From the IMG/VR virus record IMGVR_UViG_3300045988_100479, positions 1 to 32,831 of that record: a stretch of 32,831 nucleotides of DNA; one strand, written 5' to 3'. The notes beneath the pieces are model-generated. The model was not told the origin of the DNA and ran no database searches. It was given only the letters and a program-made list of their open reading frames with translations. The position numbers were made by a program, and so were the translations under genes. Of this stretch, positions 11,075-28,835 are shown piece after piece (position 1 is the stretch's first letter; each line of letters starts with the position of its first letter). The DNA comes from a virus.

Positions 11075-11088
11075 GTTTCACGTGAAAC
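11075..11088. promoter_or_regulatory. Perfect 14-bp palindrome GTTTCACGTGAAAC, copy 1 of 3, 16 bp upstream of the TMP ATG
   Basis: Exact palindrome. Identical copies are at 15173..15186 and 28201..28214. Confidence 0.6.
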
Positions 11089-11089
11089 A

Positions 11090-11682
11090 TCAAAACCATT
11101 CCTCGTCGCTCATGGACTGAGCTTCGAGCTTGGCGTAGGTCGTGCCGTTCGCCCTCAGCTGCGTCTCGGTATCGAAAGTGTCCTTGTACGCTTGGTAAAG
11201 CGCCCGAAACCGTCTGAGCGTGAGTCTCCCGACCTCCTTGTCGGACGAAAGCCCCAGCCGCGTCCGACCCATGAAGTAGTACCACGCGAAGTTGATGGTC
11301 GGGTCGTAATCAAAGATTACGTCTCCGTCGTGGACTATGCGTTTTTTGAATCATCCTCGGTTGAGTCGATGACGCTCTTCTGCACCTTGTCCGTCACGGA
11401 CTCAAGCCCGACCTCGGTGAGGATGCGCGCAACCTTGCGATGCGTGAGCGGCTTCTCGTCGGTGCCGTTCTCGTCGTTGTCGATGTCGATGCCCTCGTTT
11501 ATCATCTGCGTTGCTCCGAAAACCAGAGCCTTGATGTTAGGCTCGCCATCGTCAGGCTCAACCAGCTTGCCCCACGCCTCGATGCTGCCATACTCGTCCT
11601 GGATTGCCTCCATGACGTTGAGGTCGAAGGCGAGCTTGTACGTCTTGTCCCTGTATTCGATTTCCTGCAACTTGCTTTTCAT
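11090..11682 (-). CDS. Tail assembly chaperone: G-like product 11335..11682, and G-T-like fusion by -1 frameshift extending to 11090
   Basis: The 115-aa ORF lies between the major tail and TMP genes. The slippery heptamer A_AAA_AAC sits 2 codons before its stop. The -1 frame continues through listed ORF 11090..11272. Confidence 0.6.
11341..11347 (-). promoter_or_regulatory. Programmed -1 ribosomal frameshift slippery site AAAAAAC (read on minus strand)
   Basis: Plus-strand GTTTTTT is AAAAAAC on the mRNA. In the zero frame it reads tcA AAA AAC gca TAG. The -1 frame is open for about 85 codons to 11090. Confidence 0.55.
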
Positions 11683-11704
11683 GTAGTTTCTTCCCCCTTA
11701 AAAC

Positions 11705-11734
11705 AATGGGCCACGGCGATTGCCATGACCCATT
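11705..11734 (-). terminator. Imperfect hairpin/attenuator downstream of the major tail protein gene
   Basis: On the minus strand: AATGGGTCATGGC-AATC-GCCGTGGCCCATT followed by GTTTT. The stem has about 10 to 12 bp with 2 mismatches. Confidence 0.35.
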
Positions 11735-11759
11735 TTCGCACATCTTTTAGGCAACGCCG

Positions 11760-12332
11760 TTACTTGCCAGGCGTCTTGAGCTTGTCCTTCACCCAGGTGA
11801 CAGCCGCGTCCTTGGTGTCGAAGGTCTGAGCGGCAGACCAATTGCCATTCGCGAGCGAGGATGCGGTGCCCTCGATTTCTGGAGTCTTGAAGTCCACCTT
11901 CTCGCCCTTCGTCTCGTCCTCCTGGCTAGGCTCTGAGAACTTCACCTTGTAGAGGAACTCGCCCTTGTACTTCAGAGCGCCGTTGACCATCTTAGTGATG
12001 ACGCGGCCCAGGCCGACGTAGGGGGCGACGTCGTTGGCGTTGCGTACCATCTCGCCCTTGTTGTCCGGTCCTTCACTGACGGTGTGGCCGAGGATGGGCG
12101 CGAAGACCGTGTCATCATCATCCGCGATGCCGAGCGTCACGCTGGCGCTGTTGAAGCTCTTGTCGGACTCCGCAAGAGCGTCCTCGGCATAGAGCGTCGC
12201 GTCGTTGTTCGTGACGGAGACCTTGCAGGAGACCGCCTTGCCGAAGGTCTTGGCGCCATCATAGGCCGCTGCCCCGTCCTCGGACTCGGTGAGCTTTCCC
12301 CACCACAGGTTTGTAAGTCCAATCTTTGCCAT
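11760..12332 (-). CDS. Major tail protein
   Basis: 190 aa from ATG at 12332 (MAKIGLTNLWWGKL, resembling the N-terminus of phi13-family major tail proteins). RBS AAGAGGGG. The listed ORF is N-terminally over-extended. Confidence 0.75.
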   Translation of the reverse strand: MAKIGLTNLWWGKLTESEDGAAAYDGAKTFGKAVSCKVSVTNNDATLYAEDALAESDKSFNSASVTLGIADDDDTVFAPILGHTVSEGPDNKGEMVRNANDVAPYVGLGRVITKMVNGALKYKGEFLYKVKFSEPSQEDETKGEKVDFKTPEIEGTASSLANGNWSAAQTFDTKDAAVTWVKDKLKTPGK

Positions 12333-12334
12333 GG

Positions 12335-12682
12335 TTAAACCCCTCTTTCCTTTGCGAAACTGAGCGTCACGTGGAAATATCCTGTGTCGCTCTCGTACAT
12401 GTCCCCGGAAGAGCGGGACGGCTGCCACGTCCAGCCCGCATCTTCGAGAACCTTCTTGACTGCTTCGACGAGCGCCGCGTGGTTGCCCTTGCTGTAAACG
12501 TCGAAGTCGTAGTAGGTGACGTACCCAAGCAGAGAGTCGTCCCCTGCATACGAGCTGTCGTCATATTCGCGGCTGAAAATGACGTATGGCTCGCCGTGGC
12601 CATCGTAGGTCATGAAGCGGACTGGCACCTCTTTGCCGTTGACGGTGAAGCCGTCAAAAATCTGAACGATTTCAGCGTTCAT
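12335..12682 (-). CDS. Tail completion / tail terminator protein (putative)
   Basis: 115 aa, placed between the HK97 gp10-like gene and the major tail gene. Confidence 0.45.
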   Translation of the reverse strand: MNAEIVQIFDGFTVNGKEVPVRFMTYDGHGEPYVIFSREYDDSSYAGDDSLLGYVTYYDFDVYSKGNHAALVEAVKKVLEDAGWTWQPSRSSGDMYESDTGYFHVTLSFAKERGV

Positions 12683-12686
12683 CGGC

Positions 12687-13106
12687 TCACCCCTTCGGCA
12701 GGTATTTGTCCTGCACCTTCATCATCGCCGCTTCGATTTGGCCCTTCTTGAAGCTCCTGCGCATGAACGGGTGACGTGGGTACGGCGAATTGCTGCGCCC
12801 ATACTCGAAAAGGTTGCAGACCAGCGGCGCGGGCGTCCTCTTCCCTTCCTCGTTCTCGAAGTACCCATAGAAAGCGACCTTGGTGTTGCGCCCCCCGTCC
12901 GACGGCGTGTAGTAAGGTCGCGTAATCTTCAGGCAACGCATGATGCCAGAGCTATGGAAGCTCGCCGGGACGTTGGCTTTGACGTTGGCTAGAACCGTCT
13001 TCGCGCCCTCATGCGTCATTTCCTCAAGCATCTTCTGTGTGTTGACGTTCAGCTCTTCGAACGTCTTCATGAGTTCGGTCGGCAATTCGACATCCATCAT
13101 TGCCAT
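12687..13106 (-). CDS. HK97 gp10-like tail component / neck protein
   Basis: 139 aa at the conserved neck-gene position. Confidence 0.5.
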   Translation of the reverse strand: MAMMDVELPTELMKTFEELNVNTQKMLEEMTHEGAKTVLANVKANVPASFHSSGIMRCLKITRPYYTPSDGGRNTKVAFYGYFENEEGKRTPAPLVCNLFEYGRSNSPYPRHPFMRRSFKKGQIEAAMMKVQDKYLPKG

Positions 13107-13435
13107 CAGTGCGTCACCTCCTTCGCCTGAATCTCAAGCTCGACGTTGGCATAATCGACGTTGTTGAGATACTGAATCTCGTAGCGCCTTCCGTCGAAAA
13201 GAACCACCATGTCGCGGTCGATTTTGGTTGTAGGCGGGTAGCGAATCGTGAAGTTCGTCGTTGCCGCCTCGAAGCTCGTGCCGCTCTTGATGAGCGTGTA
13301 CCCGCGAGTCGTTCGCACGCTCGCGTAGGCTTCGAGTACCGGCTCGTCAACCGTGGTCGGGAACCCCTCCGCGTCGTGCCCAACCTTCGGCTTGACAATC
13401 TGGATGCGGTGGTCGTACTTGCCGGCGTTAAACAT
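13106..13435 (-). CDS. Head-tail joining (head closure) protein
   Basis: 109 aa at the conserved position between the connector and the tail-completion gene. Confidence 0.55.
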   Translation of the reverse strand: MFNAGKYDHRIQIVKPKVGHDAEGFPTTVDEPVLEAYASVRTTRGYTLIKSGTSFEAATTNFTIRYPPTTKIDRDMVVLFDGRRYEIQYLNNVDYANVELEIQAKEVTH

Positions 13436-13751
13436 CGTGCATCACCGACGGCAGAAGGTTCACGGAGTGCATGTCGAGGATGCTCTGCACCGTCTGATTG
13501 ACGTTCGCGGAGTCAACGTACAGCGCCCGATTGTCGTACATGTCTTGGCAAAGCACCAAGAGCACCGGGACGAGGTCCTGGGACCCGTCAAGCTGCGCGG
13601 TCGTGAGTCCCGTGTACTTGCACATGTAGGCCGTAGCCGCGCCGATAATCGTATTGAGGAACCCTTCCTCGGAAGGCGTCACCTCGCCGACCCGCAGGAA
13701 TTCCGCAAGGTCGGCAGAGGTGACCTTCGAGACTTTCTCAATCTGGTTCAT
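13428..13751 (-). CDS. Head-tail connector protein (gp6-like)
   Basis: 107 aa immediately downstream of the capsid gene. RBS GGGGGG. Sequence pattern is typical of gp6-like connector proteins. Confidence 0.6.
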   Translation of the reverse strand: MNQIEKVSKVTSADLAEFLRVGEVTPSEEGFLNTIIGAATAYMCKYTGLTTAQLDGSQDLVPVLLVLCQDMYDNRALYVDSANVNQTVQSILDMHSVNLLPSVMHDV

Positions 13752-13761
13752 CTAATCCCCC

Positions 13762-13899
13762 CTACTCTTGGGGATTCGCGTCCCCAGACTTCTTGGTGCT
13801 CCTGCCGCGCTTTGGCTTGACTTCCTCGATGTAGCCAGCCTTTGTGAGGTCGGCCACAAGTTCGGCGTCATCAATCTCTCGCGTCTCGCCCTCGTGCAT
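13762..13899 (-). CDS. Possible small ORF (45 aa) between capsid and connector genes
   Basis: ATG at 13899 to TAG at 13762 (MHEGETREIDDAELVADLTKAGYIEEVKPKRGRSTKKSGDANPQE). No clear RBS. Confidence 0.2.
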   Translation of the reverse strand: MHEGETREIDDAELVADLTKAGYIEEVKPKRGRSTKKSGDANPQE

Positions 13900-13930
13900 G
13901 GAGATTGCGCCGCTGAAGGACTTGAGCGCC

Positions 13931-15112
13931 TTATGCATTTGCCATCACAAGCTTGGAAAGCTTCTGGGCGTCCTGCACCTTGGCGTCGAACTCGAACCAA
14001 GAGATGACGCCGGTCGCATGCTCGTCAACGTACTTCTCACGAAGAACCTGCGTGGTGATGTTCTCCGAGAACTTCGTCGCGAGTCCGGTCATATCGCCGT
14101 AGTAGATGACAGTAGCGCCCTTCGCCATGTTAGGCATGTTGTCGGAAACATAGACCGGCTTGCCGAGAAGCACGGTACCGAAAGGCGAAGAGATGTCATC
14201 GTTGAGAAGGTAATGTCCGTCCGAACCCTTCAGGAGTCGGAGCGCCGTACGGGTAGCGGGGGACATAATCCAAATCGCGTTGTTCTGGTAAACATCCTTG
14301 ATGGAGTCCTTCAGCTTCACGACCTCATCGGACGTGATTGCGGTACCAGCGGCAGTGGTAACGGAGTTGGTGAGCTTGGAAAGGCCATCGACCTTGTTGC
14401 TCGTGCCGATGAGCAGTTCGTGCTCGATGAAGCGCGCGATGTCCTCGCCCATCTGATTGACAATGAAGGAGACGATGTCGAACTGGGAGTTGTTAATCAG
14501 GCTGTTGCTAATCTTGGAAAGCGCACCCGCGAGGAAGCCGTCAAGCTCGATGTTGGTGAACTCTCCGTTGGAAGAGGTCAGCGGCGTAAACTCGGTTGCA
14601 TACGCGACGTTGATGCCACCGCTGGTGGTGTCGTAGTACGGAATCTGAAGCTTTCCCTTTACGTTGTACTTCTGAGAGCGCTGAAGCACGGGGGAAACGT
14701 CGTAGACCTTCTTGATAATCTGCTGAGAGATTGTGGACGGGATGACAGCTCCGTTGTCGGTCTTGGTCAGCTCGCCCGCACGCTCGTGGACGATGCGGCC
14801 ACGGATGTAGTTCTCGAAGGCGCGGGTGTCCTGCTGCTCCTGAGTCGGCTTCTGCTCGCTACCAGCTGGCATAGGCTCCTGCTTCGGCTGCTTGTCCTTG
14901 GAGTCGTCAAGCTCGTCGCCAATCTTGAGCGCTTCCTTGATGCGCTTCACGTCGTCGCGAATCTCGGCCAGCTCTGCGGCCTCGTCCTCGGTAAGCTCGC
15001 GCTTGTTGACCTCGGCGTCGGCCAGAATCTTCTCGGCCTTCTCAATCTTGTCGTTCTTCAGCTCCATGAGGTTCTTGTAGCTCAGGGAGCGGGTGTGGAA
15101 AATCTTCTGCAT
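13931..15112 (-). CDS. Major capsid protein, HK97 family
   Basis: 393 aa with a delta-domain-like N-terminal coiled-coil followed by an HK97-fold capsid region. The ATG at 15112 follows the prohead protease gene. Confidence 0.9.
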   Translation of the reverse strand: MQKIFHTRSLSYKNLMELKNDKIEKAEKILADAEVNKRELTEDEAAELAEIRDDVKRIKEALKIGDELDDSKDKQPKQEPMPAGSEQKPTQEQQDTRAFENYIRGRIVHERAGELTKTDNGAVIPSTISQQIIKKVYDVSPVLQRSQKYNVKGKLQIPYYDTTSGGINVAYATEFTPLTSSNGEFTNIELDGFLAGALSKISNSLINNSQFDIVSFIVNQMGEDIARFIEHELLIGTSNKVDGLSKLTNSVTTAAGTAITSDEVVKLKDSIKDVYQNNAIWIMSPATRTALRLLKGSDGHYLLNDDISSPFGTVLLGKPVYVSDNMPNMAKGATVIYYGDMTGLATKFSENITTQVLREKYVDEHATGVISWFEFDAKVQDAQKLSKLVMANA

Positions 15113-15114
15113 TG

Positions 15115-15747
15115 TTAGCCCTCCTTCATCTCGGCGATAATCGCCTCGTACTTGCTGTAATCGATTTGCTTGGTTTCACGTGAAACATCGTCGGGCTTGT
15201 CCTCCCGCGTCTCGCGTGAAACGTCGTTTTCGTCATCGTCGGCGTCGAACACGTCGGAGACAAAAACCCTGTCCTCGGAATCCTCGCTGCGGGCCATGAT
15301 GAGCGTGCCGTCGTAGGCTGGCACCTTTGAGCGGTCGAGGATTGAGACCTCCTCGAGGTCGAGGTCGTTCACCTCGCGGGTGAGCATGCCGTTCTCGACG
15401 CCGTTCTTCACGTCGCGGTCATAGAAGCCGAAGGACCAGCCCACCAGGTCGCCGCGCTTCGCCATCTCCATGACGTCCTTGTCGGTGATGGTGCACTTCG
15501 CTCTGAGTCCGATGTTGTCCTCGGCAAGCTCGAGATTGCCCTGCTTTGTGCTGCCTAGGTCGCGCTGCCAGTCGTGGTTGAGCAGGACGTGGACGTCGTC
15601 GTTTCGCTTCAGGGCACGCGCGAACGCGCCCTTCTTGATTCGTTCGATGAACTTCCCCATGCGGGAGAGCATCGGCTTGCTGTTCCGCTCGACTGCGTTG
15701 ACGTAGCCCTCGATTTCGACCGAGTCTTCACGAATGTTAATCTGCAT
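15115..15747 (-). CDS. Prohead protease (HK97-type)
   Basis: Motifs GYVNAVERNS and LLNHD. ATG at 15747 has a strong RBS GGGGGGTGAAATCA. The listed 15771 start is TTG. The C-terminus carries a DVSRET repeat encoded by the palindrome at 15173..15186. Confidence 0.8.
   Translation of the reverse strand: MQINIREDSVEIEGYVNAVERNSKPMLSRMGKFIERIKKGAFARALKRNDDVHVLLNHDWQRDLGSTKQGNLELAEDNIGLRAKCTITDKDVMEMAKRGDLVGWSFGFYDRDVKNGVENGMLTREVNDLDLEEVSILDRSKVPAYDGTLIMARSEDSEDRVFVSDVFDADDDENDVSRETREDKPDDVSRETKQIDYSKYEAIIAEMKEG
15173..15186. promoter_or_regulatory. Perfect 14-bp palindrome GTTTCACGTGAAAC, copy 2 of 3, inside the prohead protease 3' end and 60 bp upstream of the capsid ATG; half-site GTGAAAC at 15216..15222
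   Basis: Exact sequence identity with copies 1 and 3. Confidence 0.6.
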
Positions 15748-16969
15748 TGATTTCACCCCCCTGCGCCTCAATTGCGCCGCCAGAATCCGAAATGCCAGCC
15801 ACCTTGGTCGAGCCCGTGTTAGGGGTGTACGTCTCGCCGGTGGCGGTGTCGAAGAGAACCGAGCCGAGTCCTAGGTCGATGAGGTCAAGCCCATGAATCT
15901 CGTTCATGTTCTCGTTGCGGCGCATTTCGTTAATCGTCATTATGCCACAGTCTTTGGCAAGCTTGTACGTCTCGTATCGCTCCTTCAGGCTCGCCTTGAT
16001 AATCTCGCGGCTGTCGAAGGCGAAGAAGTAATTTCGCTTCTCGCGCTCCAGAAGAAGGTCGCGGTTGAGCGCCGTCTCGAAGGCACGCACGATGGGGTAG
16101 ATTGCGAACTTCCACGTCTCCTCGAAGTTGTCCCTGATATGGAAGATGCCGTTGATTTCCTCGGCCATCGTACGCTTGTTCTCGTCCAGCTGCATTTCCG
16201 TCGATGTGCTGCTTGCTTCCTGAAATTCCAGGCCGTTGTTGAGCACCACGACGTTTTCCTCAGAATTGCCGTAGAGGTTAGACCAGGCGCTCTTCAGCGC
16301 GTCGATTTCCTCTTGGCCAAGCTTGCGTTGCGACTTCAGGAATCCCCGCTTGTTTCCGCCAGCCTTCACAAGCCCCAGCTGGTACATGAGCGTCTGGTAT
16401 CCAGTCTCCAGAGCCTTCGCGACCTCGACGGTAAGGCCGACGCCAGAAGCGCCGTCCTTGGTGTTGCGAAGAATCTTGATGAACTCGAAGGGCTTGAAGG
16501 TGTTAGCGCCCACGATGATGTCGTATGACTTGTGAATCGGGTCGGAGTTGATGTTGATGCTCACGGCGTCGCACGCCACGTAAAACAAGCCAGTCACGTC
16601 GTTCCTGCTGCGTTCGATGTAGCAATAGCCGCCCTTGCCCATCAGGTAGTCCTCGACCATTGCCTTCTTGAGCTGGAAGCCGTCCAGCGTGTCGCCCGTG
16701 TCACCGTTGAGCAGCTTCGTTCGCTGGTCGTTTTCCACCTCTTCGACAACGCCCTTCTTGGTGCGGTACAAGCGAACGGGCATGCAAGCCACTGCGCTCG
16801 TTATGAAGTCAACCGCGCCAGATACTGCGGGGAGCATCATCGCCTTGTCTCTGTCGATAGGCTCGTTGCTGAGCAACGCCCGCAGGAGCACGTCGTTCAC
16901 CGTGCCATCGTTGCCGATGACGTTCTCGGCGGAGCGGTTGCGCTCCCGCCAATCGCTGAGCCATCCCAT
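15737..16969 (-). CDS. Portal protein (HK97 family)
   Basis: 410 aa immediately downstream of the large terminase; ATG at 16969. Confidence 0.9.
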   Translation of the reverse strand: MGWLSDWRERNRSAENVIGNDGTVNDVLLRALLSNEPIDRDKAMMLPAVSGAVDFITSAVACMPVRLYRTKKGVVEEVENDQRTKLLNGDTGDTLDGFQLKKAMVEDYLMGKGGYCYIERSRNDVTGLFYVACDAVSININSDPIHKSYDIIVGANTFKPFEFIKILRNTKDGASGVGLTVEVAKALETGYQTLMYQLGLVKAGGNKRGFLKSQRKLGQEEIDALKSAWSNLYGNSEENVVVLNNGLEFQEASSTSTEMQLDENKRTMAEEINGIFHIRDNFEETWKFAIYPIVRAFETALNRDLLLEREKRNYFFAFDSREIIKASLKERYETYKLAKDCGIMTINEMRRNENMNEIHGLDLIDLGLGSVLFDTATGETYTPNTGSTKVAGISDSGGAIEAQGGEINAD

Positions 16970-18676: not shown

Positions 18677-19025
18677 AGTTGATTATCGCCATGAGCGGGT
18701 CGTAGTCGGAATCGCGTTCCTCGTCCTCCTTGGCGAATCCCTTGATGATTTTCATGAGCGTGGTCACAGTGCGGTTCGCGCTGTCCGTGGTCTTGTTGTA
18801 CTCGGTCACTGCGGGGTTCACGTAGATGTTCGCGCGACCCTTCACGTATTCCTTCGTTACGAGCGTGCCATTCTCCTTGATTGCCTTTTCCAGCTCGGAA
18901 AGGTTGCTGAGCTGCACCTGATACCGCTTGAAAGTGGTCACGAAAAAGAAGTTGGTTTGAACGCCAGTCTCCTCCGCTATTCTAATAATTTCCTGAGCTT
19001 GTTCGTTAAGGCTGAGCTTGTTCAT
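18654..19025 (-). CDS. terS: Terminase small subunit (P27 family)
   Basis: 123 aa. FVTTFKRYQVQLSNLSELEKAIKENG...NPAVTEYNK resembles P27-family small terminases. The ATG overlaps the MTase stop (TAATG). Confidence 0.75.
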   Translation of the reverse strand: MNKLSLNEQAQEIIRIAEETGVQTNFFFVTTFKRYQVQLSNLSELEKAIKENGTLVTKEYVKGRANIYVNPAVTEYNKTTDSANRTVTTLMKIIKGFAKEDEERDSDYDPLMAIINCDSDGEE

Positions 19026-20323
19026 TAGTTAATCCTCTCCGCTTTCTCTCCCGTGAATTGCTCCCAACGGTAAATGATTGCGTCCGCATATCTGGGGTCT
19101 AGTTCCATCGTATAGCAGGTGCGGTCTAGCTGCTCGCATGCAATCAGGGTCGAGCCTGAGCCGCCGAAGAAGTCGATTACATTATCTTTCGGCTTCGATG
19201 AATTGTTTATTAGAATCGACATCAACCGCACGGGCTTCATAGTCGGGTGCAGCCCGCTCCTTGTCGGTTTATCCTCATGGATTACCGTTGTCGGCATCGT
19301 ATCCGCCAGAATTTCCTCGAGCATCTTCCGCATTTGCTCTTTGGTCATCTTGTCGAGGTCTAATTGGTCCTCGAAAACCGTCGTTTGCTTTCGGTCGTTG
19401 ATGAAGTAGTGCCTTGCTCCCGCTTTCCAGCCGTAAATGCATGGCTCGTGTTTCCACTGGTAGTCCTGCCGCCCTAGAACCAGCGCGTTCTTCACCCAGA
19501 TTAGAATTTGCTTGACCTGACCGCCAGCATCGATTAGCGCGTCTCTGAAAACGTGCCCGATGGAATCGGCATGCCATACATAATACGCGCCGCCCTCCTT
19601 TAGGACTCTGAGCATTTGCGTATAGAACGCCTTGAGGAACGAATAGAAATCCTCGTCTGACATTTCGTCGTTCGCAATCATCAGGCCATCGGTGCGTCGG
19701 TGCCTTTTCTTGGCTTCCTCTGGATTTTCGATGCCGATTGCCACGTTATAAGGCGGGTCGGTCACGCACAAGTCCATGATTGCGCAGTCCGTCAGCTTGT
19801 CAACGTCCGCTGCACTTGTCGAGTCTCCAACCATCAGGCGGTGTCTGCCTAATCGGTATATTTCTCCTGTTTTTGATTTCGGCTCGGCTGGAAGTTCCTG
19901 CTCGTAGTCGTCCCCTTCGATGTTCATGTCGCTGAGGTCGATTCCGCCGAAGTCGATGTCGAACCCGAACTCGCCCATGTCGATTTCGCCGATGCCCTCA
20001 AGCTCGATGCCAAGCTTCGCCATGTCCCACTGGGCAAGCTCTCCCGTTTTATTGTCTGCAAGCCTGAATGCCTTCACCTGCTCTGGTGTCAAATCGTCCG
20101 CCACGATGACGGGAACCTGATTCATCCCAAGCTTGTGCGCCGCCTTCAGGCGCGTGTGCCCGTTGATGATTACGTTCTCGCCGTCGACGACGATGGGAAC
20201 CTTGAAACCGAACTCCTTGATGCTCGCGGCCACCGCATCCACCGCGTTGTCGTTCAATCGCGGGTTGTTCGCGTACGGAATCAGCGAATCGACGTCCATG
20301 TAGGTTACTTTTGTCTTCTCCAT
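19025..20323 (-). CDS. ParB-like nuclease domain fused to a beta-class N6-adenine DNA methyltransferase
   Basis: N-terminal ParB/Srx motif (YANNPR...GHTRLKAA). DPPYN (motif IV) precedes FFGGSGST (motif I), which is the beta-class order. Confidence 0.85.
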   Translation of the reverse strand: MEKTKVTYMDVDSLIPYANNPRLNDNAVDAVAASIKEFGFKVPIVVDGENVIINGHTRLKAAHKLGMNQVPVIVADDLTPEQVKAFRLADNKTGELAQWDMAKLGIELEGIGEIDMGEFGFDIDFGGIDLSDMNIEGDDYEQELPAEPKSKTGEIYRLGRHRLMVGDSTSAADVDKLTDCAIMDLCVTDPPYNVAIGIENPEEAKKRHRRTDGLMIANDEMSDEDFYSFLKAFYTQMLRVLKEGGAYYVWHADSIGHVFRDALIDAGGQVKQILIWVKNALVLGRQDYQWKHEPCIYGWKAGARHYFINDRKQTTVFEDQLDLDKMTKEQMRKMLEEILADTMPTTVIHEDKPTRSGLHPTMKPVRLMSILINNSSKPKDNVIDFFGGSGSTLIACEQLDRTCYTMELDPRYADAIIYRWEQFTGEKAERIN

Positions 20324-20606
20324 GCCTTGAAATCTCCCTTCTCTATACGTTCGGGGGCGCTATGTGGGGAACGTCCGAAAGAATCCCCGATAATCGCCAT
20401 TATTGAATGTTAATCGCAGTTTTTGACCAATAAACCGCTGTTTTCCAAAAAAGCCCTGCGCTTTAGAAATTTAGCGTTTAGAGGGGGCGTGTTAGATAGC
20501 ACTTCGCGCTCAGTTTTCAACACCTTGGGTAGGGGGGGGATTGTTGAAAAGTCTTCCACATTGTTGAAAACTCCCATAGGCCACGTGGTGCCCGATGTCT
20601 GTCAAT
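20324..20606. other. 283-bp AT-richer noncoding region with direct and inverted repeats; candidate cos/packaging initiation site and/or late promoter
   Basis: ATTGTTGAAAA repeated directly at 20540..20550 and 20560..20570, with the inverted copy GTTTTCAACACC at 20513..20524. It is positioned between the HNH gene and the ParB-MTase, terS and terL genes. Confidence 0.4.
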
Positions 20607-23481: not shown

Positions 23482-23486
23482 ATGCT

Positions 23487-23669: not shown

Positions 23670-23670
23670 A

Positions 23671-23949: not shown

Positions 23950-24361
23950 CGCAGCCACCCCCCTCGATGACCTCCGCGCCGCACTCAGGGCAGTAGCTTG
24001 GCGGGAAGTCGGAGTCATTGACGCACTCGTCTCCGCATGACAGCACCCACAGCTGGCCCGCCTCCTCGCACCCGTACGAGCCGCAGTGCGTCTTGTGCTC
24101 GACCACGTAGCACGTCGGTCGGTCTATCAGGTCGGCAAGACGGTTGTGAAGCTCCTCGTAGTCTCCAGGGTGCATGTGCTCTGCTGGGAAGCATCCGAGA
24201 ACGGCATTGTGAATCTGGCTGTAATCGGCCTCGTCTCCAATGCTCGCGTCTATGAAGAGTCCTTCCATCACCCACTCTTTGCTGGCTGCGTATGTGTCAG
24301 AAGGCAGCTCTCGTAGCTTCGCCGCCACCTCTCTGCGCTTCTTGTCGCTAGTGAATGCCAT
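23933..24361 (-). CDS. Hypothetical protein with C-terminal zinc-ribbon (CPECG...CD)
   Basis: 142 aa from ATG 24361 (MAFTSDKK...); Cys pairs at the C-terminus. Confidence 0.5.
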   Translation of the reverse strand: MAFTSDKKRREVAAKLRELPSDTYAASKEWVMEGLFIDASIGDEADYSQIHNAVLGCFPAEHMHPGDYEELHNRLADLIDRPTCYVVEHKTHCGSYGCEEAGQLWVLSCGDECVNDSDFPPSYCPECGAEVIEGGGCDVPEI

Positions 24362-24534
24362 TAGAAGAAGCCTCCCCACTTGAGAATCGCGAAGTTGACC
24401 GCGACCCCAACCATGGTCATCCAGACGTTGTATGGCCCCTGCTCCTCGCCGTGGTGGACGGCGCTCAGCGTGATGTTGATTAGGTACATGACCAGCACCA
24501 CCATCTGCGGGACCCCGATGCTCAACTCGACCAT
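24361..24534 (-). CDS. Small two-helix membrane protein (57 aa), not in the ORF table
   Basis: Translation is MVELSIGVPQMVVLVMYLINITLSAVHHGEEQGPYNVWMTMVGVAVNFAILKWGGFF. Its ATG overlaps the upstream stop (TGATG) and its stop overlaps the downstream start (TAATG), indicating translational coupling. Confidence 0.4.
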   Translation of the reverse strand: MVELSIGVPQMVVLVMYLINITLSAVHHGEEQGPYNVWMTMVGVAVNFAILKWGGFF

Positions 24535-25019
24535 CACCGACCGCCTTCCTCTTCGTCCACCAGCAGGAACCCGACCTCCGCCAGCCTCTTGCGCAGACCG
24601 TCAAGCTCCGCCTCGGCTCGCTCGGCCCTCTCGCGCAGCTCCGCCACCTCGGCAACCGCCTCGTCGCGCTCGCGCGTGAGCCTTTCAACCTTTTCGTTGA
24701 CCTCGGCTGCCAGCGCGTCCTTGCCTCGCGGCGCGATTAGGTCTGCCAGCACCTCGGGGAGCGTGGAGTCCTGGTTCTTGCCCCACCATGGGTTGAGGGC
24801 GGTCACGACCTGCGCGAGGGGTGTCTCGCAGCCCTTGCGCCCAGGCTTCGAGCAGGCCAGCAGCTCCGCCACGACCTCGTGCCTAACCTTGTCCCCAGGG
24901 TCGCGCAGCTCTCCCCTGGCCCTCGGCTTGCAGGTCATGCCGTTCGGCACGGCCCGGCCAAGGCCAATGGCCGACGGCAGCTTGTCCTGGCTTATCCTCA
25001 TCTTCACGAACTCGCTCAT
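24534..25019 (-). CDS. Hypothetical protein with C-terminal coiled-coil
   Basis: 161 aa from ATG 25019 (MSEFVKMRIS...). It forms an ATGA overlap with the upstream gene. Confidence 0.5.
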   Translation of the reverse strand: MSEFVKMRISQDKLPSAIGLGRAVPNGMTCKPRARGELRDPGDKVRHEVVAELLACSKPGRKGCETPLAQVVTALNPWWGKNQDSTLPEVLADLIAPRGKDALAAEVNEKVERLTRERDEAVAEVAELRERAERAEAELDGLRKRLAEVGFLLVDEEEGGR

Positions 25020-25378
25020 CGTGTGACCATCCTCTCCGCATCGGAGCTCCAAGGCGTGCGCGGCCGCGATGGGGTGTGGGCGATGCATGCCGGGCTGACG
25101 TGGGCGTCGCATCCCTCGGTGAAGGCGTTCACCTTCGCCGCGCCTCCTGCGTACAGAGTGGTTGACCTGACCGTGAATTCCATGCCGTCCTCCACGTCCC
25201 ACACCGTGTCGCCCACGTGGATGGGCGCCCCGTCCGCGTCCTTGGGCAGCTCCACCATCTCCGCGTCGATGCGGTCGGCTAGGACGCGCAGCTCGTCACA
25301 TGCTCCCAAGTCACATCCTTCCCAGTCAGCTTCGGATTCGTCACACCACTTGCGCAACTCGTCGCTAATCTTCGTCAT
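25016..25378 (-). CDS. Hypothetical protein
   Basis: 120 aa from ATG 25378 (MTKISDELRKW...). Confidence 0.4.
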   Translation of the reverse strand: MTKISDELRKWCDESEADWEGCDLGACDELRVLADRIDAEMVELPKDADGAPIHVGDTVWDVEDGMEFTVRSTTLYAGGAAKVNAFTEGCDAHVSPACIAHTPSRPRTPWSSDAERMVTR

Positions 25379-25613
25379 CTTCGACCACCTTCCTGACCAT
25401 CCTCTTCGCCATGTGCCAGCACTCCCTGGCCTTGCTGAGGTCCTTCCACTCGTCGTCCTTGAGTCCGGCCCTGTCGAGGTACTTGAGCGCCGAGCCTGCC
25501 GCGAAGTAGATTGCCATTGCCGGAGATATGGCGTACATCGCATCGATGCACTCGATGCCCTCACTGGCGTAGTGGCTTGGGTGCTCGACCCCGTCCATCG
25601 AGTCGTCTGACAT
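25365..25613 (-). CDS. Hypothetical protein (possibly DUF3310-like)
   Basis: 82 aa. The PSHYASEGIECIDAMY pattern resembles small phage DUF3310 proteins. This is a tentative recognition. Confidence 0.45.
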   Translation of the reverse strand: MSDDSMDGVEHPSHYASEGIECIDAMYAISPAMAIYFAAGSALKYLDRAGLKDDEWKDLSKARECWHMAKRMVRKVVEDDED

Positions 25614-25627
25614 CGCCCCTCACCCCC

Positions 25628-25747
25628 TCAGCGTCCGTTGTTCTTCGTCGCACCGACTAGGAATGCGACGCACACCACGAGAAGCATGATTACGTCCCCG
25701 ATGTTCGTCTGGGGGCTTAACGGGTGTGGGATAAGTGCTTGAAGCAT
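25628..25747 (-). CDS. Possible small hydrophobic peptide (39 aa), not in the ORF table
   Basis: Translation is MLQALIPHPLSPQTNIGDVIMLLVVCVAFLVGATKNNGR. It is preceded by AAAGGAAACGAAG and a hairpin at 25773..25794. Confidence 0.2.
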   Translation of the reverse strand: MLQALIPHPLSPQTNIGDVIMLLVVCVAFLVGATKNNGR

Positions 25748-25807
25748 CTTCGTTTCCTTTCTCTTGTTTGGGGGAGCGGTTTCGCCCCCGCTCCGTGGGC
25801 CGCTGGC

Positions 25808-25987
25808 TTACCTGTTCTCGTTGACCGCCGCGTCGTAGCCTTCTGCGTATGCCTTGACCATGGAGGGCGTGCGGTAGACGAGGTTTGCGAGGGAGCCACG
25901 CTCGACTGCCCTATCTACGCCATCACGGTTGACGATGTATGCGCCCATCCTGTGACCCCTGTTGTATGCCTTCTCGATGTTGCTCAT
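25808..25987 (-). CDS. Hypothetical small protein (cassette gene)
   Basis: 59 aa from ATG 25987 (MSNIEKAYNRG...). The upstream 5' leader is about 170 nt and carries element E. Confidence 0.45.
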   Translation of the reverse strand: MSNIEKAYNRGHRMGAYIVNRDGVDRAVERGSLANLVYRTPSMVKAYAEGYDAAVNENR

Positions 25988-26184
25988 TGCCGTTTCCTTT
26001 CTCTCTCTGAGGAATCGCATTTACGGCCTGTGTCTCGATGGTATATGCCGTCTGACCTTTCCTCTTCGTATATTAGTATACACTAACAACGCCCGAGATG
26101 GAAGCGCTTTCGTAAGAGATTCGCGCGGTAATTTATTCCGTGGGAAATTCTTCCGCACAAGAAAAAGGCCCCATCTCTGGGGCC
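25988..26184 (-). promoter_or_regulatory. Cassette element E: long leader with core AGTATACAC (26075..26083) and terminator hairpin GGCCCCA/TGGGGCC (26162..26184)
   Basis: Shares the AGTATACAC core and the CTTCCGCACxAAAAAGG box with element B. Confidence 0.5.
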
Positions 26185-26215
26185 CTGTCCTACCTTACGA
26201 AATTTTTCGGTTCCC

Positions 26216-26419
26216 TTACGCTGCTGCGTGCTTGCTCCACAGGTCTGAATAGATTTTGTCGCTTTCTTCTTCCGAGACGCGCCCGTCGATAATCTCGAAC
26301 CCACAGTCACGGAAAATCTCGCCTTCTGCCGTGTTCCAAGTCTTGTCAATTGCGTTGATGATTGCGCTGGTGCTAAGGCCGTTCATGAGCTTCATGAAGT
26401 TGTCGCGGCTTGCCTTCAT
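26216..26419 (-). CDS. Hypothetical small acidic protein (cassette gene)
   Basis: 67 aa; ATG 26419 directly downstream of element C. Confidence 0.5.
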   Translation of the reverse strand: MKASRDNFMKLMNGLSTSAIINAIDKTWNTAEGEIFRDCGFEIIDGRVSEEESDKIYSDLWSKHAAA

Positions 26420-26427
26420 TTTGGTTT

Positions 26428-26535
26428 CCTTTCTCTCTCCCTCACTTGCTGATAGCAGTATACACCTATGGCGACCTTATGCGCGCGGGAACCTGAGGTT
26501 TTTCAAAATAAAAAAGGCCCCCATTTCTGGGGGCC
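26428..26535 (-). promoter_or_regulatory. Cassette element C: near-identical copy of element A (core AGTATACAC 26457..26465) plus terminator GGCCCCCA/TGGGGGCC (26505..26535)
   Basis: The first 42 bp and the last roughly 45 bp are identical or nearly identical to element A, separated by a 20-bp variable segment. Confidence 0.55.
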
Positions 26536-26540
26536 TCGCC

Positions 26541-26726
26541 CTACCTTACGAAGAGCGCCTTGTAGCCCTCAATCGCATCTAGAAGGAACCACGTTGCCAC
26601 GTCGTATTCCTCCTTGTCGGATTCCGTCATGTCTCCGACCTTTCCACTCCAGTGGAACCGTGAGCCTTCGTAAAGGAGAACCTCATCGTCGGGCTGGAAG
26701 TCAGTGTCGAAGATTGTATTTGCCAT
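26541..26726 (-). CDS. Hypothetical small acidic protein (cassette gene)
   Basis: 61 aa, Asp/Glu-rich; ATG 26726 downstream of element D. Confidence 0.5.
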   Translation of the reverse strand: MANTIFDTDFQPDDEVLLYEGSRFHWSGKVGDMTESDKEEYDVATWFLLDAIEGYKALFVR

Positions 26727-26815
26727 TGTCGTTCCTTTCTCTCATTGCCTTACTTGCTGTAGCAAAGTATACACCTATGGCGAGCGGTTGCAGGCGAGAA
26801 TCTGAAAAACATTGC
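26727..26815 (-). promoter_or_regulatory. Cassette element D: core AGTATACAC (26766..26774), dyad TTGCTGTAGCAA (26754..26765), GAGAATCTGAAAAA box
   Basis: Same subtype as element B. Confidence 0.5.
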
Positions 26816-26844
26816 CCGATATATGAGCGCGGCCTATTTACTAT

Positions 26845-26894
26845 TTTCGTGACCTCACGAAATATGAGCGTGGCCCCCAGCATGGTGAGGGCCA
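26845..26894 (-). promoter_or_regulatory. Hairpin GTGGCCC-N12-GGGCCAC (26869..26894) and palindrome TTCGTGA-CC-TCACGAA (26845..26860) downstream of the sigma-like gene
   Basis: Direct dyad symmetries; a possible terminator/operator ahead of the first cassette. Confidence 0.35.
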
Positions 26895-26931
26895 CAGGCG
26901 AGAGAAAGGTGCGGCGCTCGATGGGCCGCGG

Positions 26932-27237
26932 CTAGATTGTACCACGGAGGAACCTGCGCAGTTGCTTCGCTGGCGAAGTCCTCTCGTAATGCATCCGTCT
27001 CGCTATCGTCTCCCAGCTCTTCCCCTCCAGGAACCGCATGACGGCGATTGCCCTGACTCTCGCGTCTGGGATTGCAGCGATGAAGGCCATGACCTCCAGC
27101 CTTGCGGCTTCGACCGCCCGTGCCTGCCTGTCAATCGCCCTCAGAACGTCCTCGCTGCTCTCTTCGGCTGCGACCCTGCGGAGCGCGTCCAGCTCCGCCT
27201 TGAGATGCACGGCCTGCGAAAGCTCGCGCTCGGTCAC
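26932..27237 (-). CDS. Sigma-70 region-4-like HTH transcriptional regulator (ArpU/RinA/DUF1492-like phage activator)
   Basis: The C-terminal segment VRAIAVMRFLEGKSWETIARRMHYERTSPAKQLRRFL resembles sigma region 4. A probable GTG start at 27237 overlaps the dnaC-like stop (GTGA). The listed ORF is over-extended, and its 27324 start is also GTG. Confidence 0.5.
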   Translation of the reverse strand: MTERELSQAVHLKAELDALRRVAAEESSEDVLRAIDRQARAVEAARLEVMAFIAAIPDARVRAIAVMRFLEGKSWETIARRMHYERTSPAKQLRRFLRGTI

Positions 27238-28073
27238 AGCCCCAGAAGCTCCTTGGCTGCTGCTGTCCGTGCTGCGTAGTCCGAACGTCGGCGGTCTTGT
27301 CCGTTGAAGGCCACGGGGACGCACATGTCCATGATGCGGCTGTAGATTCGCTGCTCGCCGAGTCCGTCAGCGCTCATGAGGTCGCGTGGGTTGATGTTCG
27401 TCGTCACTATCAGCGGCAGCTTGGAGCGGTAGCGGGCGTCGATGACTGCCGTCACCTGCTCCGTCATGTACTCGGTGCGGCGCTCTGTGGCGAAGTCATC
27501 GATTATGAGCAGGTCAAACTTCTGCAGACTGTCGATGTACTCCTGCTTCCCCGAGAACCCGTTCTGCAGCTTGTTGACTATTCGCTGGAAGTTGGTCATG
27601 AGACACGGCGTTCCGCTCTCAATGAGCGCGTTAGCTATGCACGCGGCCGCGAAGCTCTTCCCGCTGCCGACGTTTCCGTAGAGCATGAGGCCCGTGCCGT
27701 TCTCCAGCATCTGCGGGAACTTCTCGACGTACCGCCTCATGGCCGCCATGGTCTTGGCGTCCTTGCCGTCATCGTTGGCGAAGGTCCACTCCCTCATCTC
27801 CGAGTCGGGGAAGCCGGTGCGGCGCATCCTGTCCACGCGTTGCATCCTCTCGCGCGTGCGCTCGTCCTCCTTCCTGCGCTCCTCATCCTCGACCTCGCAC
27901 TTGCACATACAGTAGGGCTTGATTACCCTGCCGCCGAACTCCACCTCGCACTGCTTGGGAGTGTGGCACTTTCCGCAGTAGAGCAGGCCGTCCTTGATGT
28001 AGTCGCCCGCCTGCGGCTTCGCGTTCATGTCTGCTGCCTTTGCCAGTCCCTCGATTATTCCATTCATGTTCAT
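27234..28073 (-). CDS. DnaC/IstB-like AAA+ helicase loader
   Basis: Walker A LYGNVGSGKSF, Walker B DLLIIDDFATE, and an N-terminal Cys-rich segment. Confidence 0.85.
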   Translation of the reverse strand: MNMNGIIEGLAKAADMNAKPQAGDYIKDGLLYCGKCHTPKQCEVEFGGRVIKPYCMCKCEVEDEERRKEDERTRERMQRVDRMRRTGFPDSEMREWTFANDDGKDAKTMAAMRRYVEKFPQMLENGTGLMLYGNVGSGKSFAAACIANALIESGTPCLMTNFQRIVNKLQNGFSGKQEYIDSLQKFDLLIIDDFATERRTEYMTEQVTAVIDARYRSKLPLIVTTNINPRDLMSADGLGEQRIYSRIMDMCVPVAFNGQDRRRSDYAARTAAAKELLGL

Positions 28074-28088
28074 GATTTTCCTTCCTCT

Positions 28089-28835
28089 CTATCGCGTTGT
28101 CGGCGCGTACTTTCCAAGTCCGAGAACCTTGTCTAGCTCCTCGTCTCCGCTGCTCTGGTAGTAGTAATCTGCATCTACCTTCTTGCTGAATCCGCTTGAT
28201 GTTTCACGTGAAACGCCGACTTTGTTTCCGTCCCTGTCACGTCGCGCCCAGTTCCGAATCGTTGCTAGGTGGTTCTTGTAGCTCTTCCCGCTTGATGCCA
28301 TGTAGGAGCTGAGCCTTTCGATTCTCTCTTCCCAGTCCGTGGGAAACTCAGTTTTGAGCTTCTGCACGTCTGAATCTGTGAGAAGAACGTTGGAGTACTC
28401 GCCGAACTTGTGGCGCGTCTCTATCTTCTCTCTAGTGTTTTTCTCTAGCTTATCTACATCTATAGTATGGGTGCTCATTTTGGGTACACCCCCCATACCC
28501 ATTTTGGGTACGCCCCCCTGTTCATTTTGGGTACACCACTGCGCATTTTGGGTACCCCGTACCGCCCTGTAGTCCACGAGCAGCACACCAGCCTTCACGT
28601 GCTCGCGTCTCTCAATGAGTCCGTCCGCACATAGCGTGTCCAGGTTCCGTGATACAGTGCTCTTCGACACTTGGCACCACGCTGCCAAATATGAGCGCGA
28701 CCCCGTGAACCACGAGTCTCCATCCTGCGAGAATCCGTAGATTACCGCGTAGATTATCAACGCGTTCCCGCTTAGGTGCAGCTCGTTCACCATGAATGCC
28801 TGAATGTTCACGTATGAGTCGGATTTTACTTCCAT
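28089..28835 (-). CDS. Replication initiator (winged-helix N-terminal domain, DnaD-like C-terminus) containing origin iterons
   Basis: ATG 28835 has RBS AGGGGAG. The HTH region is YLAAWCQVSKSTVSRNLDTLCADGLIER. Four iterons lie inside the coding region. The listed GTG start at 28868 falls inside a 13-bp-stem hairpin. Confidence 0.65.
   Translation of the reverse strand: MEVKSDSYVNIQAFMVNELHLSGNALIIYAVIYGFSQDGDSWFTGSRSYLAAWCQVSKSTVSRNLDTLCADGLIERREHVKAGVLLVDYRAVRGTQNAQWCTQNEQGGVPKMGMGGVPKMSTHTIDVDKLEKNTREKIETRHKFGEYSNVLLTDSDVQKLKTEFPTDWEERIERLSSYMASSGKSYKNHLATIRNWARRDRDGNKVGVSRETSSGFSKKVDADYYYQSSGDEELDKVLGLGKYAPTTR
28201..28214. promoter_or_regulatory. Perfect 14-bp palindrome GTTTCACGTGAAAC, copy 3 of 3, inside the initiator gene 3' end and about 130 bp upstream of dnaC-like
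   Basis: Exact identity with copies at 11075 and 15173; it encodes VSRET. Confidence 0.6.
28476..28555. repeat. Iteron array: four direct repeats of CATTTTGGGTAC at 28476, 28500, 28523 and 28544 (spacing 24, 23, 21 bp); putative replication origin
   Basis: Read directly from the sequence. The repeats are embedded in the initiator ORF and encode VPKM or TQN depending on phase. Confidence 0.7.

Follow-up and report, generated by a model that had tools for sequence, protein, structure and literature searches.

Why should a perfect palindrome of 14 bp be present three times, twice within coding sequence, in a single viral genome? The window – the whole stretch of DNA analysed, 32,831 nucleotides in length – is a complete circular genome of 32,776 bp, that of a temperate human-gut siphophage of the cos type. 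An independent ENA contig is likewise circular at 32,776 bp, and several contigs end at the presumed cos site. A motif search of the whole window returned exact GTTTCACGTGAAAC at 11075-11088, 15173-15186 and 28201-28214, together with a copy carrying two mismatches (GTCTCGCGTGAAAC, 12/14) at 15209-15222. The first-pass annotation had reported the three exact copies at these positions and argued that they were not due to chance; both statements hold. A Markov model predicts ~1e-4 exact copies per window, and the four matches with no more than two mismatches compare with 0.09 expected, a count of four being reached in 0 of 100 shuffles. The gene contexts assigned to the three sites were also confirmed on checking, while the supposed half-site at 15216-15222, although a match does lie there, proved to belong to a second full site, now decayed, of which it is the right arm. 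The sites, labelled parS for reasons given below, and the features around them are:

11074..11089, read on the minus strand as TGTTTCACGTGAAACg: parS-1, 15/16 to the parS consensus
8504..11059, minus strand: tape-measure protein gene (851 aa), directly downstream of parS-1
15172..15187, read on the minus strand as TGTTTCACGTGAAACc: parS-2, 15/16, encoding VSRET
15209..15222, read on the minus strand as GTTTCACGCGAGAC: decayed partner of parS-2, 12/14, encoding a second VSRET
15115..15771, minus strand: prohead serine protease (Peptidase_S78) gene, carrying parS-2 and its decayed partner
28200..28215, read on the minus strand as cGTTTCACGTGAAACA: parS-3, 15/16, encoding VSRET
28089..28868, minus strand: replication-initiator gene (HTH_36), carrying parS-3 and the putative iterons
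27234..28073, minus strand: DnaC/IstB-like helicase-loader gene, downstream of the initiator
28472..28558, no strand assigned: four direct repeats of about 19 nt (TGCxCATTTTGGGTACxCC) with 21-24 bp spacing, inside the initiator gene

The identity of the palindrome points to an answer. Across bacteria, TGTTTCACGTGAAACA is the near-universal chromosomal parS consensus and is bound by ParB; TGTTNCACGTGAAACA is the parS of B. subtilis and C. glutamicum, and that of M. smegmatis is GTTTCACGTGAAAC, exactly the 14-mer. Each exact copy in the window has the perfect 14-bp core and 15 of the 16 bases of TGTTTCACGTGAAACA, and all three fall within the definition of parS as a 16-bp palindrome that matches TGTTNCACGTGAAACA and has GTTTCACGTGAAAC as its core. 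Judged by its sequence, the palindrome forms the core of parS, the "centromere" of bacterial chromosomes. This match makes host ParB the likely reader of the sites, rather than a Cro, cI or RHH protein of the phage, on the assumption that ParB and ParA are present in the host; chromosomal par systems are listed in both the Firmicutes and the Actinobacteria covered by a review (PMC7022226). The DNA sequence is the same as in the chromosomal ParABS systems of B. subtilis, C. glutamicum, M. smegmatis and others, where parS sites are also often within coding sequence and cluster by the replication origin. The window sites differ in belonging to a viral replicon, in numbering three or four over 33 kb and in being polymorphic among close relatives.

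The settings of the three sites are distinct. parS-1 occupies the gap between the tail-chaperone stop and the tape-measure RBS: it adjoins the stop codon TGA (11092-11090) and ends 15 nt ahead of the tape-measure ATG (11059, minus strand). A parS is present at the same junction in other members of the lineage (L013, L014, L017-L019, L029, L042 and L353, among others). In relatives that have no site the junction is minimal, about 20 nt, and the palindrome therefore represents an insertion of about 16-18 bp. parS-2 lies within the acidic linker at the C terminus of the S78 prohead protease, at the 3′ end of the gene and about 60 nt ahead of the capsid ATG (15112). Its partner, decayed in the window, is intact in most close relatives; in L002-L011, L013, L016 and L030 it is a perfect 14-mer situated 36 or 45 bp from the other copy.

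A variable linker in the replication initiator's C-terminal half contains parS-3, which is upstream of the DnaC-like gene and about 110 nt short of the initiator stop codon. Among 19 relatives found via the initiator, 15 have the site with at most one mismatch, and its 14-mer core is better conserved than the flanks. The four direct repeats form a putative iteron-type phage origin; parS-3 is about 260 bp from them, the other sites being 13-16 kb off. The iteron region and the N-terminal HTH of the initiator are exchanged among relatives as one module, a homology breakpoint recurs near 28,427, and the site is retained in relatives whose N-terminal HTH has been swapped.

Sixteen reconstructed relatives carry 0-4 sites each, solely at the same three positions, with at least one site in 15 of the 16. 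The first-pass annotation took absence of the 14-mer from syntenic positions in closely related phages as grounds for refutation, and the outcome is mixed: the 14-mer is syntenic in many relatives and absent from others, and the virulent relative Lactobacillus phage c5 has no such site. Some close relatives lack the site at one or all positions, a polymorphism from which it follows that the sites are not essential. Both coding sites fall in hypervariable protein linkers; with the remaining one at an intergenic junction, all three occupy positions that the phage can tolerate. Each coding site encodes the peptide VSRET, and the suggestion that selection on the DNA forced it into two unrelated proteins is borne out: parS-free relatives have unrelated linker sequence there, and conservation of the 14-mer is 0.974 compared with 0.775 and 0.894 for the flanks.

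The sites extend well beyond this lineage. Among 118 unrelated viral loci with the 14-mer, the full 16-mer is present at 112 of 157 sites (about 6% would be expected by chance), and 21 of the loci have two or more sites. The genes that house them encode terminase, S78 protease, phi29-like DNA polymerase, tail-knob protein and amidase. At least 120 viral contigs, from 45 unrelated clusters whose GC content ranges from 26% to 73%, contain perfect parS sites in tandem pairs.

Two further genes bear on how such sites might be used:

19025..20323, minus strand: ParB_N (CTPase-fold) domain fused to an N6/N4 DNA methyltransferase, the sole ParB-like gene of the genome
514..2016, plus strand: large serine recombinase (integrase or resolvase), after an HTH_3 repressor gene at 202-510

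Pfam searches of the full gene lists detected neither ParA nor a ParB with a DNA-binding HTH (HTH_ParB) among all predicted genes. A self-encoded parABS of the P1, N15 or mycobacteriophage type was rejected on these grounds. The ParB_N-methylase aligns solely to the N-terminal fold of Noc/ParB, with no match beyond it and no HTH, and reads GHTR where the GERR motif is expected; the methylase module is exchanged among relatives independently of the presence of sites.

Neither the GTDB species genomes, in which the best integrase match was 39%, nor 61 metagenome loci yielded an integrated copy, and about 360 protein clusters (homologues of the integrase, portal and lysin) were never on contigs >45 kb. 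In 24 of 24 human-gut metagenome contigs the integrase has phage DNA on both sides, in random permutation; that collection does have contigs of 128-141 kb with distant integrases. Distant integrases are also present in Clostridia MAGs. As to the host, the only hints are MAG labels naming Olsenella sp. and Senegalimassilia sp. (Coriobacteriia). Given circular assemblies and no integrated copies, an episomal phase is plausible. Circular contigs may equally stem from lytic replication or virion DNA.

On balance we think it probable, from sequence, that the sites are a form of centromere mimicry: a phage without partition proteins would carry host-type parS and borrow the segregation machinery of its host. 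On recognising the sites, host ParB dimers would form closed, CTP-dependent clamps and slide out along the adjacent phage DNA; given the spacings of 4.1, 13.0 and 15.7 kb, spreading could reach the whole 32.8-kb circle. The resulting partition complexes would tie phage DNA to host ParA and/or SMC, so that unintegrated genomes would be positioned and passed to both daughters (or to the spore, if the host sporulates) instead of being diluted out. The benefit would fall in a non-lytic episomal phase, be it the establishment of lysogeny, pseudolysogeny or a plasmid-like prophage state. Counting against mimicry, the phage encodes a serine recombinase and a repressor, and an ordinary integrated lysogen needs no partition.

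To our knowledge, the use of host chromosome segregation machinery by a phage has previously been shown only for Bacillus phage phi29. The phi29 genome has five parS sites, and Spo0J has been implicated in segregating it into the prespore (Meijer et al. 2005, as relayed in PMC2731898). The window phage resembles phi29 in carrying several copies of the host chromosomal parS without a ParB of its own; exploitation of a host segregation protein to carry unintegrated DNA along with the chromosome is a feature of phi29 that the sequence suggests for the window phage. The two nonetheless differ. phi29, a small podovirus that is protein-primed and formally lytic, infects a spore former; Spo0A boxes at its early promoters suppress the lytic cycle and its genome is entrapped in the prespore, whereas the window phage is a 32.8-kb cos siphovirus of the human gut with a repressor and a serine recombinase, its host possibly a non-sporulating member of the Coriobacteriia. 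Its sites have perfect consensus cores and are found in coding linkers, one of them beside the putative iteron origin.

With P1 ParAB-parS, N15 SopAB and mycobacteriophage parABS the window phage would share a purpose – stable extrachromosomal inheritance via a ParB-centromere complex – but each of those phages brings its own ParA, ParB and private centromere, whereas this one encodes neither protein and uses the centromere sequence of its host. A mobile element stabilised by the partition system of another replicon has a parallel in SGI1, which is reported (PMC10954446) to stabilise itself through the parABS system of an IncC plasmid; SGI1 is an integrative mobilisable island exploiting a helper plasmid, whereas here a phage would exploit the system of the chromosome. 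A bolder version, which we advance tentatively and as possible rather than probable, is that this lineage, abundant in the human gut, is non-integrating: a low-copy circular episome that parasitises host ParABS/SMC by centromere mimicry without partition genes of its own, the serine recombinase acting mainly in multimer resolution. More generally, and just as tentatively, host-type parS sites, many of them tandem pairs within coding linkers, could represent a common phage strategy that has gone unrecognised in many bacterial phyla.

Host ParB might instead be bound in order to remove it. During lytic growth hundreds of replicated genomes with 3-4 sites each would titrate the limited host ParB from the chromosomal origin, and the phage would gain from the disturbance of segregation, SMC loading or ParA-DnaA control, or else its DNA would be condensed into a ParB-rich replication/packaging body. 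We hold this reading to be unlikely. The evidence for parS identity serves this reading equally, two sites are within the late operon, apparently lytic phi29-like contigs contain perfect sites, and tandem high-affinity pairs are common among viral contigs. However, phi29, the sole studied case, showed prespore segregation and not takeover (PMC2731898), and no phage gene is suggestive of ParA or DnaA targeting. Titration would moreover gain little, because parB is non-essential in most Gram-positive bacteria and its phenotypes are mild (PMC7022226).

Improbable too is a role in an integrated prophage, where ParB/SMC loaded locally would silence or insulate the late and replication genes (as a roadblock) or reshape the chromosome. 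Of the readings considered, this is the nearest to the "roadblock" idea of the first-pass annotation. According to a review (PMC7022226), ParB-parS complexes are able to load SMC and to repress promoters in their vicinity, and the phage does possess a repressor and a serine recombinase. Against this stands the lack of any integrated copy in the GTDB species genomes, the 61 metagenome loci and the ~360 protein clusters. Placed ectopically and far from the origin, parS sites tend to upset the organisation of the chromosome, and the same sites are found in phi29-like phages, a group not known to integrate.

The reader had originally been sought within the phage, among Cro-like, cI-like, RHH or winged-helix proteins, and the function in an operator or late-promoter element. 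The genome encodes several HTH proteins (cI-like HTH_3, HTH_39, the HTH_36 initiator), and a perfect palindrome repeated in one genome would suit an operator or roadblock for a dimeric regulator of this kind, Cro-like proteins included. We consider this very unlikely, and neither proposal is borne out: the sequence is that of the host centromere, the 16-mer recurs in many unrelated phage contigs, with 45 unrelated viral clusters having other regulators, and a search of the whole window placed no copy in the immunity region (repressor/cro intergenic). The likely binding sites of the initiator are different sequences, the iterons, and the relatives with a swapped HTH keep the palindrome.

That the sites act through base-pairing – as an RNA stem-loop in translation coupling or mRNA processing, or as a DNA cruciform, the arms GTTTC/GAAAC mattering and the centre forming a loop – we likewise give little credence. 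Site 1 with its flanks does fold at -9.3 kcal/mol (z = -2.8), and AT-rich distant relatives keep the arms and not the centre. The two coding sites, in contrast, fold no better than shuffles (z = 0.0 and -1.3), and no U-tract lies 3′ of any of the three sites. With folding energies of -4.2 to -9.3 kcal/mol, the earlier description of a poor RNA hairpin and a symmetric site for a dimeric DNA-binding protein stands. Just outside the stem, T and A are conserved both in the lineage and in the 118 unrelated loci (outward position 1 is A at 83% in the latter) and the CACGTG centre is kept within the lineage, which fits a protein site. The palindromes of the AT-rich distant relatives, GTTTC-N5-GAAAC without the CACGTG centre, are at the same junctions: the variants GTTTC-AAATA-GAAAC or GTTTC-AATA-GAAAC occur at the chaperone/tape-measure junction and the protease 3′ end, a hint that something besides ParB can use these positions.

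Least probable of all is a restriction-modification or methylation target, or a short recombination linker shared between phages: the phage encodes an orphan-type methyltransferase and a Rad52-like annealing protein, and the sites had been judged to lie at module boundaries, but CACGTG occurs 10 times against 10-13 expected, half-sites outside the full sites are neither enriched nor avoided, relatives exchange the methylase module irrespective of the sites, and comparison with the 16 relatives places 0, 0 and 2 of 306 breakpoint ends at the three sites, so that the boundary idea fails as well. One other motif, TGTCGAA, counted as a test for Spo0A boxes, is in excess (15 versus 5.7±2.5 expected); its copies are scattered through coding sequence, and the excess is probably codon bias (TTC GAC).

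The palindrome is present in the window as three exact copies and a fourth, degenerate one:

Copies of the palindrome in the window
11075-11088, site 1 (parS-1): exact copy of the 14-mer GTTTCACGTGAAAC
15173-15186, site 2 (parS-2): exact copy of the 14-mer GTTTCACGTGAAAC
15209-15222: fourth, degenerate copy with two mismatches
28201-28214, site 3 (parS-3): exact copy of the 14-mer GTTTCACGTGAAAC

Under a Markov model ∼1e-4 exact copies are expected; with up to two mismatches allowed, the four matches compare with an expectation of 0.09, and four were reached in none of 100 shuffles. A scan of the window bore out every detail of what the first-pass annotation had reported of the three copies and their positions. 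Nearly all genes of the window are on the minus strand. Site 1 abuts the TGA stop of a small tail-chaperone ORF and ends 15 nt before the tape-measure ATG (11059). The 3′ end of the S78 prohead protease gene holds site 2 together with the degenerate copy, and the capsid ATG follows after ∼60 nt; site 3 lies in the HTH_36 replication-initiator gene, ∼110 nt before its stop and upstream of the DnaC-like loader. The recurrence of the peptide VSRET at both coding sites follows from the palindrome sequence itself: one of its frames contains TGA, one encodes FHVK and one encodes the polar VSRET, and it is this last frame that suits an acidic linker.

Judged by its sequence, TGTTTCACGTGAAACA is the consensus of parS: the chromosomal centromere at which ParB (Spo0J in B. 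subtilis) nucleates. A search of the full-text literature with the 16-mer returned ParB/parS papers only, one of which used the exact string to locate parS in gut bacteria. A review table (PMC7022226) gives the parS consensus as TGTTNCACGTGAAACA for B. subtilis and C. glutamicum, GTTTCACGTGAAAC for M. smegmatis and AGTTTCACGTGAAACT for S. pneumoniae. On the gene strand the three sites of the window read TGTTTCACGTGAAACg, TGTTTCACGTGAAACc and cGTTTCACGTGAAACA, each of which agrees with the parS consensus at 15 of 16 bases. We regard it as very probable that the motif in the window is a host-type parS.

The first-pass annotation had preferred a different reader, namely a phage-encoded regulator of the Cro-like, cI-like, RHH or winged-helix type. 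This explanation is disfavored: the sites are identical to the host centromere, the palindrome recurs in unrelated phages, and the immunity region is without any copy. An RNA hairpin or terminator is a weak candidate in this lineage; AT-rich distant relatives do keep the arms with a changed centre (GTTTC-AAATA-GAAAC type) at the equivalent junction and protease 3′ end, but the folding energies are low, from −4.2 to −9.3 kcal/mol (z-scores of the coding sites, 0.0 and −1.3), and there is no U-tract. A restriction-modification motif, which the same annotation had named as an alternative that would undo its reading, was rejected, with CACGTG and its half-sites occurring at the expected frequency in the window.

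The recurrence of parS in unrelated viruses was assessed by scanning IMG/VR for the 14-mer, which gave at least 120 matches, with flank composition and a scan for tandem pairs serving as internal controls. Among the matches listed, 118 loci are unrelated to the window: 112 of their 157 sites are the complete 16-mer, as against ∼6% if flanks were random, the outward flanking positions are 83% A, and 21 of the 118 loci carry two or more sites. Perfect parS cores are thus common in unrelated viral contigs (L117-L352), and they are often found inside bona fide phage genes, including those for a terminase, an S78 protease, an amidase, phi29-like protein-primed DNA polymerases and a phi29 gp9-like tail knob. 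The tandem-pair scan sought two perfect cores 8-38 nt apart in IMG/VR, for which the chance expectation is near zero; such pairs are present in at least 120 viral contigs belonging to at least 45 sequence clusters and ranging in GC from 26% to 73%. Centre-to-centre spacing peaks at 24, 26, 34 and 42 bp among the matches listed. The lineage of the window is just one of the at least 45 clusters.

Closer relatives were sought in IMG/VR and metagenomes with the protease, initiator and integrase as queries. Many were found in the human gut, 80-90% identical to the window over most of the genome. At syntenic positions in related phages the 14-mer recurs in part: parS-like sites number 0-4 per genome and occupy three positions only, with at least one in 15 of 16 reconstructed genomes. 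However, the sites are polymorphic and lacking in some relatives, and their presence varies even among phages whose integrases are 92-97% identical. The first-pass annotation also placed the sites at module boundaries; as recombination linkers they were rejected, since the homology breakpoints fall elsewhere.

The C-terminal linker of the protease, a hypervariable acidic stretch, reads GDAEPPETRDDGQQQEPQQEPQQE in relatives without parS as against DEHDVSRETREDKPDDVSRETKQE in others, and in most close relatives it holds two perfect cores 36 or 45 bp apart. The ‘half-site’ previously noted in this gene is thus real, but is the decayed partner of a full site. In the C-terminal linker of the initiator a site with at most one mismatch is found in 15 of 19 relatives, among them relatives with a replaced N-terminal HTH domain; where the site is lacking, the linker reads KDRQSHSQQSRRAREN. 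Mean major-allele frequency at the initiator site is 0.974 in the core, as against 0.775 (left) and 0.894 (right) in the flanks. The chaperone/tape-measure junction is minimal where it lacks a site (EEWF-stop, ∼20 nt, ATG), whereas in genomes with a site the palindrome is inserted between the stop and the RBS. Variant palindromes were observed in further relatives:

Variant palindromes at the chaperone/tape-measure junction and the protease 3′ end
L067, L072, L074, L075 (e.g. L072:8066, 11656); L057:2245; L059:6545: AT-rich distant relatives, parS arms with another centre (ATGTTTCAAATAGAAACAT, ATGTTTCAAAAAGAAACGG, ATGTTTCAATAGAAACTG)
Other relatives, same positions: parS variants TGTTCCACGTGGAACA and TGTTCTACGTGGAACA

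The ends of the window are identical (a 55-bp terminal direct repeat, 1-55 = 32777-32831), which shows the assembly to be circular and the genome, of 32,776 bp, to be complete. The same circle is represented independently in ENA by a 32,895-bp contig (32,776 plus a 119-base overlap) whose proteins are identical to those of the window. By gene content the phage is a temperate cos-type siphovirus:

Genes and repeats of the window
HTH_3 repressor, large serine recombinase, Cro-like gene
Gp157, Rad52-like protein, SSB, dUTPase
HTH_36 initiator, DnaC-like loader
28472-28558: four iteron-like direct repeats TGCxCATTTTGGGTACxCC with 21-24 bp spacing, inside the initiator gene
Holin, GH25 lysin with cell-wall-binding repeats, HNH
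ParB_N-methyltransferase fusion
TerS, TerL, portal, S78 protease, HK97 capsid, tail genes, tape measure

Megablast with 24 kb of the window gave no match to cultured phages. By protein, c5 and LL-Ku, two cos phages of L. delbrueckii, come nearest; gene order is shared, TerL identity to c5 is 72%, and c5 contains no parS. The gap that separates HNH from the ParB_N-methylase (∼20,324-20,606) probably contains the cos site: it is here that several relatives' contigs in IMG/VR start, and the annotated cos site of c5 is at the equivalent place, between HNH and the ParB-like gene. The iteron stretch and the N-terminal HTH of the initiator are swapped as one module in relatives (breakpoint near 28,427), as expected of an origin paired with its initiator specificity; the origin is putative.

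The phage encodes neither ParA nor a ParB that has a DNA-binding domain. The sole ParB-like gene (19025-20323) encodes a ParB N-terminal fold fused to a methyltransferase; this fold aligns to the Noc/ParB residues that precede the HTH, with GHTR for GERR. Such fusions are common in phages generally. Across relatives (L002-L081) conservation of the ParB_N domain exceeds 90%, while the C-terminal methyltransferase has been repeatedly exchanged for unrelated ones. As a reader or recruit of the sites the fusion was rejected: it is present in relatives both with and without sites, its methylase is swapped independently, and it has no HTH. To our knowledge, host chromosomal ParB is the only protein class specific for the parS sequence, and we infer that it is the reader of the window sites.

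The sites may serve to recruit host ParB for inheritance or positioning of the phage DNA, a proposal that we favor with some reserve. In this scheme the sites would nucleate ParB dimers, which would close into CTP clamps and then spread; neighbouring sites are separated by 4.1, 13.0 and 15.7 kb around the circle, distances at which spreading could reach the entire genome. Contact of these complexes with ParA and/or SMC would then let phage DNA segregate together with the chromosome. Site parS-3 is ∼260 bp from the iteron-like repeats, and its place beside a putative origin fits, by analogy, the location of parS next to oriC. The phi29 precedent and the lack of sightings of this lineage in an integrated state, both described below, accord with the proposal as well. 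That the sites instead act as a ParB sponge during lytic growth seems to us improbable.

A role for the sites in an integrated prophage is disfavored because no integrated copies were found in the metagenome contigs and GTDB genomes surveyed: although a repressor and recombinase are encoded, the lineage was never seen integrated. Homologues of integrase, portal and lysin (∼360 listed clusters) are on contigs of at most 45 kb only. In human-gut metagenomes, contigs carrying an integrase of at least 54% identity are all 39.7 kb or shorter, and the integrase sits at random positions, bordered left and right by phage DNA in 24 of 24; the same metagenome collection has distant integrases on contigs of 128-141 kb. 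In GTDB species genomes the integrase had no match above 39% identity (relatives at up to 39% are in Clostridia MAGs), and these genomes yielded no host and no attB. Human-gut metagenomes contain the lineage in abundance, with hundreds of cluster members (L353-L394 among the loci), circularly permuted contig starts and no case of host DNA beside the serine recombinase. The absence of an integrated form fits an abundant episomal or replicative form, but is no proof of a plasmid-like prophage; virion DNA would give contigs that break at the presumed cos site, and several in IMG/VR do. The only organism labels obtained, from exact-cluster look-ups and three homology searches, were those of Senegalimassilia and Olsenella MAGs. 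These labels are weak since they rest on binning, and they hint at a host that is possibly non-sporulating and of the Coriobacteriia.

The element in the window is a canonical parS, and its use by a phage is already known from phi29, which contains five parS sites and in which Spo0J has been implicated in segregating the genome into the prespore (PMC2731898). Phage phi29 is a precedent in that it likewise carries host parS. In contrast to phi29, the phage described here is a temperate cos siphovirus of the human gut, its host is possibly non-sporulating, and it has perfect cores inside coding linkers, one of which lies next to a putative origin. It does not belong with phages that encode their own parABS (P1, N15, mycobacteriophage), having neither ParA nor ParB. 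A precedent for a mobile element using the par system of another replicon is SGI1, which is reported to exploit that of the IncC plasmid (PMC10954446). Within the incomplete coverage of our literature search, phi29 and the SGI1/IncC analogue were the only cases bearing on phage-borne host parS, and no paper was found on host-type parS as a general feature of phage genomes. The at least 120 contigs and at least 45 clusters suggest that phage-borne parS is a much larger kind than has been recognised, and that the phi29 case (2005) is one example of a general strategy, uncatalogued in the literature searched.

If host ParB loads on these sites, then a common human-gut phage is inherited via the host centromere, with neither integration nor partition genes. 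This would provide a compact route to persistence (pseudolysogeny, carrier state, plasmid-prophage), for which mechanistic explanations are hard to find. Such phages would escape prophage predictors and lifestyle classifiers, which are keyed to integrases or parAB. Variants of parS could also mark host range, because phages of ParB-less hosts should not carry sites. Synonymous recoding of VSRET removes a site and leaves the proteins unchanged.

Two further features of the window were noted. The 5′ end of the initiator gene (28855-28893) contains a perfect inverted repeat of 16 nt around a 7-nt spacer (GAAAGCCCCATCACAG / CTGTGATGGGGCTTTC), which might serve in regulation or terminate the gene upstream. 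The heptamer TGTCGAA of the Spo0A box, a box also present in phi29, occurs 15 times, as against 5.7±2.5 expected from dinucleotide shuffles; the copies are scattered in coding sequence (e.g. 2473, 7091, 8268 and 28663), with 11 of 15 on the plus strand, and codon bias (TTC GAC on the gene strand) is a more probable cause of the excess than regulation.
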